From a virus (Duplodnaviria; Heunggongvirae; Uroviricota; Caudoviricetes), in IMG/VR virus record IMGVR_UViG_2695420763_000017, positions 1 to 46,150 of that record: a stretch of DNA of 46,150 bases. One strand, written 5' to 3'. The notes below the pieces were generated by a model. The model saw only the letters and a program-made list of their open reading frames with translations. It was not told the DNA's origin and searched no databases. Position 1 is the stretch's first letter, and each line of letters starts with the position of its first letter. Position numbers and translations under genes: made by a program. This document shows positions 44,543-46,150 of this stretch, piece after piece.

Positions 44543-45370
44543 ATGATAAACTTAGATATGGATGTTGTGGTTGGACATGGGCAGAACGATTTTGAAGAAT
44601 TAGAAATGAATTCCGGCATAAAGGTTTTTGCTGGAGCTTCTGACATCACCCAAATTACAACAAGCACTATTTTAGATGATTCAGTCCCCAAAAAATCAAC
44701 CTCTATACATGGGCTTAGGAATATGTTCAAACATACATTTGATGGATCGTTTGGACAAAATTTTGAACTTAGAATTGATGATCCTGAAAAGATAAAAAGA
44801 TTTAATGAAATTGGCAGGGGTGTTTTTTTTGATGTTATGTCATATTACATCTCTAAAGGAATGGGAATAGCTCACCATCTTAAGAGCCAGAAAGCAATCG
44901 ACTTAGTAGAGCGTCTTAAACCGCTTGAAAAACAACTTTTGATAAGAATTCAGGAACCTATACAGAATTTACATAAAACAGTTGAGAAACAAAAATATAA
45001 TGTACTTCTGAGAAGAAGAACACCAACTAAAAAATTAGTTGTTGCTAAAATGGATACGCAGACGCTCTTCAATATCAATGTAGAGCATGAATCTGCTCAA
45101 CCAGTAGAAGAAAATGTTATTATAACTAGGTTTAATATGTTAACAGGAACTGGTCGATTGTTATTAGATAGACAGTCAGATTCAATTGCCTTTAGACACC
45201 ATCTTAATTGGGAACATGTATTGCAGTCTCAGAAAAATAAGTTTTCAAGGAATCTTGATAGGAATAACAGAGGTGGTAAAGACGCTTTTATACCTATAAC
45301 CATTTCTGCTTATGAGTTGCGCGATCATATTGGAGAGCTCAAGGCTTATATAATTAGAGAAATATTGTAA
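44543..45370 (+). CDS. hypothetical protein (275 aa), first gene of AT-rich cassette
   Basis: AAAGAG RBS 6 nt upstream of ATG 44543; very AT-rich; unrecognised. Confidence 0.7.
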   Translation: MINLDMDVVVGHGQNDFEELEMNSGIKVFAGASDITQITTSTILDDSVPKKSTSIHGLRNMFKHTFDGSFGQNFELRIDDPEKIKRFNEIGRGVFFDVMSYYISKGMGIAHHLKSQKAIDLVERLKPLEKQLLIRIQEPIQNLHKTVEKQKYNVLLRRRTPTKKLVVAKMDTQTLFNINVEHESAQPVEENVIITRFNMLTGTGRLLLDRQSDSIAFRHHLNWEHVLQSQKNKFSRNLDRNNRGGKDAFIPITISAYELRDHIGELKAYIIREIL

Positions 45371-46150
45371 ATGAAGATGCCCTCAATCAAAGTTATTTCA
45401 CTTATATTAATAGCTATTGTATGGTATTTTTACTTTTCTCATTTCAATCATTGGGATAGCCCGTTAGATATCTTTAATGCTAGCAAATGGATGGGTTTTT
45501 CCAATGATAAAGGTGATTGGGGCACTTTCGGGGATTTTGTAGGAGGTGTGCTTAATCCTATCTTGACCTTCATTACAATTGTTATGCTCATTAATTCCTT
45601 GAAACTTCAACGAGAAGCAAACGAGCAACTAATTAAAGACGAAAGAAGACAAGAGAAAGACGTTCTTCTAAAACGGTTTGAAGACGGTTTTTATAACCTT
45701 ATCTCTTCAGAAAGAGAGGAGTTTAGTTGTTTTACTATTAACATTAACGGAAAAGAATACCGCTCATCTGCTGCTGTTAGTGAATTGGAAGAGGCAATAT
45801 GGGCTTTTATTGAGAAACAAATAGATGAAAAAGGAGCTTGCGAAATTGAGGATGTTAAAAATTACATAAATAAAATTGATGAGGATTCATCTATGGCAAT
45901 ATTTTCCATGGTGCGATGTGTATATGTTGTTTTTAAGGTTGTTAAGGATAAATGCCCTGAAGAACATCAAGATTACTACTTAGATATTTTTATGAATATG
46001 TTACCAGTTAAACTGGTAAATTTAGTTGCTATTGTGTCTGTGTATATGGACTGGAAAAACGTAAAATATATTATTGATGGTGGAAAAGGATTTTCGGATA
46101 ATGAAGCAGTTAAAGAATATATTAATACTTGGAAGGAGTTTCATGAATAA
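45371..46150 (+). CDS. hypothetical membrane protein (259 aa; two N-terminal TM helices plus charged domain)
   Basis: ATG immediately follows upstream TAA; TM1 about residues 6-22, TM2 about 53-76; stop TAA at window end. Confidence 0.7.
   Translation: MKMPSIKVISLILIAIVWYFYFSHFNHWDSPLDIFNASKWMGFSNDKGDWGTFGDFVGGVLNPILTFITIVMLINSLKLQREANEQLIKDERRQEKDVLLKRFEDGFYNLISSEREEFSCFTININGKEYRSSAAVSELEEAIWAFIEKQIDEKGACEIEDVKNYINKIDEDSSMAIFSMVRCVYVVFKVVKDKCPEEHQDYYLDIFMNMLPVKLVNLVAIVSVYMDWKNVKYIIDGGKGFSDNEAVKEYINTWKEFHE

Follow-up and report, generated by a model that had tools for sequence, protein, structure and literature searches.

The last two genes of a 46,150-nucleotide stretch of DNA (the window; positions 1 to 46,150 of the IMG/VR virus record IMGVR_UViG_2695420763_000017, Caudoviricetes) form a compact cassette of two open reading frames, ORF1 and ORF2, that encode a soluble protein and a membrane protein. 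We consider it fairly probable that this cassette is a self-contained, mobile anti-phage module of the AbiC/AbiP (putAbiC) type, lodged in the 3′-end defence hotspot of a satellite resembling the phage-inducible chromosomal islands (PICIs), and an anti-phage function of any kind is likely. The reasoning is that ORF2 is a distant relative of the abortive infection (Abi) proteins AbiC and AbiP, that ORF1 is its obligate partner and that both reside in a defence slot, from which it follows that they probably constitute an anti-phage system. The pair is probably a system of AbiC/P type in which a second component is obligatory, new relative to the single-gene AbiC/P systems rather than a new category. 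An initial annotation of the window, made from the DNA letters, had cautiously read the pair as anti-phage or exclusion cargo at the end of an element; every part of that reading that could be checked was supported and none was contradicted.

44543–45370, plus strand: ORF1, a soluble protein of 275 amino acids (aa), divergent member of the DUF7946 (N-terminal and middle part) plus DUF7947 (C-terminal part) family, as judged from profiles and an AlphaFold2 (AF2) model
45371–46150, plus strand: ORF2, a membrane protein of 259 aa, distant member of the putAbiC (AbiC/AbiP) superfamily, as judged from profiles, an AF2 model and Kyte–Doolittle hydropathy

Two genes of foreign composition under purifying selection

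ORF1 and ORF2, as delimited from the list of open reading frames and the sequence, are real genes under purifying selection, with dN/dS values of 0.065 and 0.143 respectively against a Klebsiella copy that is 86% identical. At the composition of the cassette random codons would, by our own arithmetic, include approximately 7.5% stops, so that an open frame of 275 codons would arise by chance with a probability of about 5e-10. The stop codon of ORF1 (TAA, 45368–45370) abuts the start codon of ORF2 (ATG, 45371), confirming the gapless arrangement described in the initial annotation, and the final three bases of the window are the stop codon of ORF2. The base composition of the cassette is foreign to its island: the GC content is 0.338 for ORF1 and 0.327 for ORF2, compared with 0.468 for the rest of the island (31733–44050) and 0.531 for the prophage part of the window (first 25 kb), and GC at third codon positions is 0.27–0.29, compared with 0.46–0.49 for the integrase and primase genes of the island. 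The AT-richness of both genes relative to their neighbours had been recognized earlier and is borne out by these values (33–34% GC, where the island has 47% and the prophage 53%); the neighbours themselves had been taken for phage genes and are instead genes of a satellite island, as seen from an annotated identical island in Escherichia coli N1420.

ORF2 is a distant relative of AbiC and AbiP

Profile–profile comparison places ORF2 among the inner-membrane proteins of the AbiC/P superfamily. Alignment of the ORF2 subfamily (16 sequences) with the set of proteins positive for PF16872 (putAbiC) by hhalign gave a probability of 99.7% and an E-value of 8.7e-26 over 201 columns, spanning residues 13–249 of the query and so covering the cytoplasmic domain besides the transmembrane (TM) motif. 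The earlier inference of a membrane protein thereby gains a family, at the level of profiles. PF16872 itself is matched by 5/27 members of the ORF2 family, all of them distant (best E 5e-18), and distant ORF2 homologues match the PADLOC models for AbiP (E 7e-10) and AbiC (E 6.5e-7). Close homologues, with 60–97% identity, are found in Citrobacter, Serratia, Yersinia, Cronobacter and Enterobacter.

Kyte–Doolittle analysis and the AF2 model agree on two hydrophobic segments, TM1 (approximately residues 5–25) and TM2 (approximately residues 55–77), the hydrophobic windows of the former method extending over approximately 1–27 and 53–80. The 181 residues outside the TM segments are 33% charged, in accordance with the two N-terminal hydrophobic helices and charged cytoplasmic domain noted at first. 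In the AF2 model (mean predicted local distance difference test score, pLDDT, 85) helices are formed by residues 5–25 and 47–119 with a short periplasmic loop between TM1 and TM2, and TM2 runs on as a single long helix to residue 119, to be followed by a β-hairpin and a helical bundle. ORF2 thus displays the architecture of the superfamily, namely one or two N-terminal TM helices and then a mainly helical cytoplasmic domain. No match to the fold of this model was obtained in the PDB.

Conservation in ORF2 peaks at the periplasmic end of TM2, in the glycine-rich motif W50-G-T-F-G-D55-x2-G58-G59-x2-N-P63, in which G51, T52, F53, G54, D55, G58, G59 and P63 are invariant in 27/27 aligned sequences, PF16872-positive ones included. 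The motif is also present in the alignment of the PF16872-positive proteins, and the superfamily pattern G-[TH]-[FL]-G-D-x-x-G-G-x-x-x-P at the start of the last TM helix is found in ORF2. Since the most conserved part of the superfamily is this glycine-rich stretch, the membrane segment would be expected to be functional and not a mere anchor.

ORF1 and ORF2 form an obligate pair

To judge from the loci compared, the pairing of ORF1 and ORF2 is obligate, the two genes being always adjacent, co-oriented and translationally coupled. All eight of the loci in which the ORF1 family is detected with a profile E-value of <= 1e-24 have an ORF2 homologue immediately downstream (hidden Markov model E 8e-22 to 1e-110), with the genes 3–4 bp apart or overlapping. 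For the converse test metagenomes were scanned with the motif of the ORF2 subfamily, yielding 80 loci, 27 of which encode proteins similar to ORF2 over nearly their full length (31–100% identity). An ORF1-family gene lies directly upstream and on the same strand in 24/24 of the ORF2-subfamily loci that have at least 400 bp of upstream DNA. The remaining 53 loci, which represent the wider putAbiC family, contain no ORF1-family gene within 3 kb; 40 of these 53 have at least 900 bp of upstream DNA, and among these informative loci ORF1 is found in 0/40. Two wider putAbiC proteins that were inspected singly are both solo, one being a moron in a Mu-like prophage of Shewanella. The proposal of the initial annotation that the soluble and membrane proteins are a functional pair is strengthened by this coupled arrangement, which is kept across 31–100% identity. 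A genome search with the alignment of close ORF1 homologues returned two genomes only.

Among the most distant relatives of ORF1 the partner changes: it is a DUF4160 protein, a soluble protein, or a multi-TM protein of another kind with an Mrr_cat/M78 protein after it. These arrangements suggest that the DUF7946+DUF7947 protein is a module able to team up with various genes, its pairing with the AbiC/P-like subfamily being one fixed combination.

Three of the neighbourhoods may be recorded in their own right. At locus L016:666-3594 the gene for a distant DUF7946-family protein (275 aa) precedes one for an unrelated multi-TM protein of 240 aa, after which comes an Mrr_cat/Peptidase_M78 protein. 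Immediately after a distant ORF1-family member comes a DUF4160 gene (L015:1206-1577), and a DUF4160/DUF2442 pair immediately precedes a solo putAbiC gene (L018:4463-5008); these DUF4160 neighbours could be a coincidence or a recurrent association of small cassettes.

ORF1 is related to the DUF7946+DUF7947 family

ORF1 contains no hydrophobic segment and is basic (isoelectric point 9.1). A word-indexed search retrieved just 10 close homologues, all of 275 aa, and a repeat search with a diverse alignment added one further protein. An exhaustive profile search of 1.84 billion representatives identified 143 ORF1-family clusters at E <= 1e-3, and 44 at E <= 1e-30, these counts being of representatives at 50% clustering; nearly all members are of 265–285 aa and align end to end. 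DUF7946 (PF25678) is matched by 27/44 diverse family members (best E 1.6e-20) and DUF7947 (PF25679) by 29/44 (best E 3.3e-12), and at the level of the family these profile matches link ORF1 to DUF7946+DUF7947. With this link, and the assignment of ORF2 to the putAbiC superfamily, the earlier statement that neither protein was recognized is superseded. Residues G31, G68, S69, H144, R196, N198, G202, G204, R205 and F217 are conserved across the family.

The AF2 model of ORF1, built from a nine-sequence alignment, has a pLDDT of 78 overall and of 83–93 in its C-terminal part, where residues 188–274 are modelled as β1-β2-β3-helix-β4-β5, the topology of an oligonucleotide/oligosaccharide-binding (OB) fold. 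Foldseek comparison with BFVD revealed two uncharacterized phage proteins that match ORF1 at approximately 5e-7, one of them annotated as DUF6575. No NCBIfam model matches ORF1. Membership of the PADLOC family PDC-M02B was rejected, as the match is weak (E 2e-4), covers 49 residues and is shared by just 2/44 family members. A HEPN reading was likewise rejected: ORF1 has no Rx4-6H motif, its sole conserved histidine (H144) has no conserved arginine 4–6 residues upstream, the model is mixed α/β and no HEPN protein was matched in the Foldseek search of the PDB. Literature searches found no papers on DUF7946, DUF7947, PF25678/PF25679, putAbiC, PF16872 or the WP accessions of the two proteins.

The cassette occupies a defence hotspot

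The segment of island backbone that precedes the cassette (43151–44271) is present in 167 genomes, with at least 80% of it in 127. Sibling islands remain homologous as far as 44271, a position just past the final GTGTCAA repeat, and carry different cargo beyond it.

44051–44271, plus strand: repeat array AA(A)GTGTCAA of the island backbone, five exact copies (one inverted) and one degenerate copy
44272–44375: left junction of the cargo slot; sibling homology ends at 44271 and homology to the Klebsiella cassette starts at 44376
44376–44542, plus strand: leader of the cassette, 167 bp, presumably regulatory, which travels with the genes into the Klebsiella prophage Kp4865-4
after 44271 in HUSEC2011: AAA ATPase and DUF4435 protein, that is PARIS (AriA E 5e-43, AriB E 3.6e-22)
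after 44271 in WP2-W18-CRE-03: SIR2 protein (PDC-S25, E 4e-139) and a partner
after 44271 in E189: methyltransferase (MTase), DUF262 protein (NsnA/PD-T4-2_A-like, E 1e-55) and HEPN-like nuclease
after 44271 in DE17 and SCU-104: DUF4747 pair
after 44271 in ABU 83972: 662-aa protein with weak matches to proteins associated with prokaryotic Argonautes

Since sibling islands carry PARIS, SIR2 or MTase and DUF262 systems beyond 44271, the slot is a defence hotspot, and the contention that the cassette stands where anti-phage cargo is typically found is well matched by these occupants (PARIS, PDC-S25 SIR2 and MTase with DUF262). He et al. (2024, PMC11364771) state that immune systems are encoded at either the 5′ or the 3′ end of PICIs; the Tai systems described in the same study were rejected as a match because they involve a different slot (beside pri) and different proteins.

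The sequence AAGTGTCAA occurs five times in the window, in each case within 44058–44257, where 0.44 occurrences would be expected. The array is probably a binding array for the adjacent helix-turn-helix (HTH) protein, which resembles a terminase small subunit (TerS), and would then be of a cosB/pac-like or Rpp-type kind, serving the packaging-redirecting protein of the satellite. The repeat-dense junction of the initial annotation (44055–44480) is thus real as far as the five repeat copies are concerned, while the array belongs to the conserved island backbone and not to the cassette. The leader contains an imperfect palindrome, AGACAAAGTCA/TGAATTTGTCT, at 44428–44457 and a direct repeat, ACTCAAGTTTT, at 44415 and 44468; no Rfam RNA family was detected in the cassette or leader.

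The cassette is mobile

The cassette is present in 56 of 5426 complete E. coli genomes (approximately 1%), with at least 99.8% identity over a 2.75-kb region; these 56 copies are always chromosomal, none being on a plasmid, and the carriers include carbapenemase-producing clinical lineages. In the lambdoid prophage Klebsiella phage Kp4865-4, window positions 44376–46123, comprising both genes and the 167-bp leader, are found at 86% identity in the early region, flanked by YdaT/DnaT-like replication genes on one side and DUF968/LexA-like genes on the other. Copies of the pair with 46% identity occur in chromosomal islets adjoining fimbrial, type VI secretion system (T6SS) or permease genes. Others have as their neighbour an integrase, within an AlpA/DUF3987 element, a preceding PLD nuclease gene or, on a plasmid contig, MobA/MobL. 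The commonest Pfam families among 78 neighbour proteins from 16 loci are Phage_integrase (6), Mrr_cat (4), antiterminator Q (2) and AAA_21 (2), accompanied by AAA_15, IS66, resolvase, Rz, KilA-N, D5-type primase and MobA. Each of the two proteins also has a match among PHROG families of unknown function, namely 13337 (E 9e-56) and 8999 (E 1e-45). From these comparisons the cassette is seen to move as a unit among satellites, prophages, plasmids and chromosomal islets.

Comparison with known systems and a possible mechanism

AbiC has two TM helices and AbiP one, and the proteins were grouped as AbiC/P in a 2026 review of lactococcal Abi systems (PMC13064643). AbiP binds RNA more strongly than single-stranded DNA, requires its own TM helix, is triggered by the major tail protein and disturbs the switch from early to late transcription (PMC13064643), and the AbiP-like protein PdpSau of Staphylococcus aureus prophages likewise needs its membrane anchor and causes depolarization and permeabilization of the membrane upon infection (PMC10127798). 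ORF2 shares with AbiC, AbiP and PdpSau its N-terminal TM helices (two, as in AbiC), the GxFGD-x2-GG-x2-P motif, a helical cytoplasmic domain and carriage on a mobile element. The classic AbiC/P proteins are from Gram-positive bacteria, in contrast to the ORF2 subfamily, which is found in Enterobacterales and diverse metagenomes. An OB-like module has been proposed within AbiP and PdpSau; here the putative counterpart is on a separate partner, ORF1.

The RexA and RexB proteins of phage lambda are the textbook pair of a sensor and a membrane-depolarizing protein in abortive infection. The cassette resembles them in logic and size: in both cases a temperate element carries, as a moron of two genes, a cytoplasmic protein of approximately 275 aa and a small, polytopic protein of the inner membrane. 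RexB however has four TM helices and no large cytoplasmic domain, unlike ORF2, and membership of RexAB was rejected since there is no RexA/RexB Pfam match at E <= 1 and no match in the PDB by sequence or Foldseek. In its position the cassette is like other 3′-end PICI defence cargo (Fillol-Salom et al., 2022; He et al., 2024) and the cargo of P2/P4 hotspots (Rousset et al., 2022), being placed in a variable slot of an int-alpA-pri satellite, at the end away from int.

A mechanism may be envisaged in which ORF1 is the cytoplasmic partner that either recognizes a phage cue or holds ORF2 in check. Such a cue might be a nucleic-acid intermediate or a structural protein, as is the major tail protein for AbiP. 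Infection would activate ORF2 through its helical cytoplasmic domain, and ORF2 would then compromise the membrane or cell energetics, as PdpSau does, or block the early-to-late switch of the phage, as AbiP does; with either outcome the infection would abort. The roles of sensor for ORF1 and effector for ORF2 are suggested by architecture and analogy. We slightly favour ORF2 as the effector, and regard it as possible, but less likely than not, that ORF1 is a positive sensor rather than a negative regulator. The most specific version of the proposal is possible, if on balance doubtful: that an AbiC/P-type 2-TM membrane effector is gated by a DUF7946+DUF7947 OB-fold protein dedicated to sensing phage in the cytoplasm, in an undescribed two-component abortive infection system whose Rex-like logic evolved independently.

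Alternative explanations

Several considerations weigh against an anti-phage module of the AbiC/P type. The role is one proposed for a cassette known from its genes and their context, and residence in a defence hotspot is circumstantial support. ORF2 is itself below the Pfam and PADLOC thresholds, unlike AbiC and AbiP, with no putAbiC, AbiC or AbiP match at E <= 1 and no match to an NCBIfam model. Although the ORF1 family has the two-domain architecture of DUF7946+DUF7947 proteins, ORF1 itself is sub-threshold in Pfam, scoring 14.9 bits for DUF7947 where the cutoff is 27 and giving no DUF7946 match of its own. Profile and Foldseek searches against the PDB found no relative of solved structure for ORF1, and the OB-like assignment draws on the AF2 model together with weak Foldseek matches to CspA, the N-domains of LysRS and AspRS, RPA and ExoVII (E 0.1–1). 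The profile, structure and defence-system searches suggested by the initial annotation gave a correspondingly mixed result: hhalign linked ORF2 to putAbiC, while Foldseek against the PDB gave no match for ORF2 and weak OB-fold matches for ORF1, and PADLOC gave no match for ORF2 and the weak PDC-M02B hit for ORF1. PADLOC-DB v2.0.0, the sole detection tool run, contains no system model that matches the cassette. The AT-rich, promoter-like stretch described earlier did not hold up, as a consensus scan gave no convincing promoter, with nine sites where 8.1 would be expected by chance; the leader contains no strong sigma-70 consensus and there is no plus-strand site just upstream of the ORF1 ATG. 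The classic AbiC/P systems act as single genes, whereas the ORF2 subfamily has ORF1 upstream in every informative locus. PICI cargo was reportedly tested by Fillol-Salom and colleagues in work published in Cell in 2022. No paper naming the cassette was found in a search that did not cover that study, and an earlier test under another name is possible. AbiC (1992) and AbiP (2004) are moreover still without a known mechanism (PMC13064643).

The tight coupling of a soluble gene placed first to a membrane gene placed second, in an obligate pairing carried by many types of mobile element, would also be expected of a toxin–antitoxin module in which ORF2 is a membrane toxin and ORF1 its antitoxin or regulator, with stabilization of the island or prophage as the main effect and any anti-phage effect secondary; DUF4160-type small cassettes are nearby in two loci. 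We judge this unlikely. Both proteins are large (275 and 259 aa) in comparison with typical type II pairs, profile searches with ORF1 returned no HTH, ribbon-helix-helix or AbrB match and hence no recognizable DNA-binding antitoxin fold, the relatives AbiC, AbiP and PdpSau are non-toxic before infection, and the slot is otherwise occupied by bona fide defence systems. As many toxin–antitoxin systems are themselves abortive infection systems, the explanation overlaps with that of an AbiC/P-type defence module. Envelope superinfection exclusion, in which ORF2 in the inner membrane would block DNA entry or the receptor or translocation machinery, assisted or regulated by ORF1 and without cell death, is an unlikely explanation as well, and if anything a little more so. 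It would fit a small 2-TM protein whose best-conserved motif is at the periplasmic face of TM2 and whose carriers are a satellite and a prophage, and the island EcCIMP1, at the same att site, confers an unexplained superinfection immunity (PMC11773190). However, EcCIMP1 lacks the cassette, phage DNA enters and is transcribed in the case of both AbiP and PdpSau, and superinfection exclusion proteins are usually encoded by single small genes; the conservation of a large cytoplasmic domain and of an obligate cytoplasmic partner sets the present pair apart.

A function in the life cycle of the satellite, such as interference with a helper phage, lysis timing or redirection of packaging rather than general defence, is suggested by the location of the cassette immediately downstream of the TerS-like HTH gene and the repeat array, and PICIs do interfere with their helpers (PMC6092414). 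Most siblings that share the packaging module nevertheless lack the cassette (the backbone is in 127 genomes and the cassette in 56), which is also found in the early region of a lambdoid prophage, in islets by fimbrial or T6SS genes and on a MobA plasmid contig, and its GC content marks it as foreign to the island. The occurrence of the cassette outside satellites, together with its absence from most siblings, disfavours such a function, which we regard as very improbable.

Should the interpretation as an AbiC/P-type module be correct, a subfamily of AbiC/P that relies on an obligate partner would allow sensing and execution to be separated by genetics, and this natural ‘split’ AbiC/AbiP would make the mechanism of 30-year-old Abi proteins tractable in E. 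coli, a host that offers easy phage panels and genetics for a Gram-negative AbiC/P subfamily. It would provide the first functional context for DUF7946 and DUF7947, a family of more than 140 diverged clusters, and would add to the enterobacterial PICI 3′ defence hotspot a type of cargo that is missed by PADLOC-DB v2.0.0. The presence of the cassette in about 1% of complete E. coli genomes, clinical lineages included, would be relevant to the prediction of host range in phage therapy.

The host satellite and its surroundings

The window is a tandem of two elements at tRNA-Thr, an SfV-like prophage (1–31566), of which bases 1–25000 are 97% identical to SfV-type phages (SfV/SKA5), followed by a PICI-like satellite (31524–46150). 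The cassette does not belong to the SfV-type phage.

31524–31566, plus strand: left end of the satellite by sequence comparison, a partial copy of tRNA-Thr with the att core TCCTATTATC at 31550–31559
31733–32947, plus strand: integrase gene of the satellite, by annotation
32992–33059, plus strand: int-alpA RNA (RF02996) just downstream of the integrase gene (Rfam, 45.5 bits, E 2e-6)
43505–44050, plus strand: 181-aa protein of the island backbone with an N-terminal HTH and matches to terminase small subunit and excisionase families, the last conserved gene before the cargo slot

The partial tRNA-Thr copy (one mismatch) forms the junction of prophage and satellite, and the prophage uses the same tRNA. 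The primase of the satellite matches phrog_864 (E 1e-156). The int-alpA RNA, the primase, the TerS- or excisionase-like HTH protein and the tRNA-Thr junction together identify a PICI-like satellite in tandem with a prophage, and the element displays the int-alpA-primase order, the size of approximately 10–20 kb, the lack of virion and lysis genes and the att repeats at both ends that characterize PICIs. In E. coli N1420 the cassette constitutes the last two genes of an island of approximately 14.5 kb at tRNA-Thr (thrW), in which the integrase is followed by a small HTH gene in the AlpA position, AntA/B, an Icd-like gene, a DUF5906 primase, ProQ/FinO, PerC, several small genes, the 181-aa HTH protein and finally the cassette. 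There the att repeat TCCTATTATC recurs approximately 270 bp past the ORF2 stop codon; the window, which ends at that codon, thus stops approximately 270 bp short of the attR of the satellite. The placement of the pair at an element end in the initial annotation was correct, in that it lies in an integrative satellite as the final coding unit ahead of attR.

The experimentally mobilized PICI EcCIMP1 confers superinfection immunity that is unexplained, and it carries no known defence system (PMC11773190). In E. coli MP1 (NZ_CP139039.1, 3557883–3587000) it too is found at thrW, adjoining the same MarR/Vat islet and equipped with a near-identical integrase, while its backbone and 3′ cargo differ, the latter consisting of a pRiA4b ORF-3 family protein and a hypothetical protein. 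Direct inspection showed that the cassette is absent from EcCIMP1, and its immunity phenotype is therefore not attributable to ORF1 and ORF2. The presence at one site of satellites with different backbones and cargo implies that thrW hosts a family of exchangeable satellites.

Two further regions of the window may carry additional cargo. An ORF at 41179–42321 (plus strand; GC 0.40) encodes a 380-aa protein with a lipoprotein signal (…LTGC) and coiled-coil-like repeats, which several sibling islands also encode as a ‘hypothetical protein’. It belongs to no family in Pfam, PHROG or NCBIfam and may represent further cargo of the island. A second very AT-rich stretch (28300–30300; GC < 0.36), near the int-distal end of the prophage, holds ORFs at 28118–29671 (517 aa) and 29968–30965 and may be prophage cargo, such as serotype-conversion genes or other morons.

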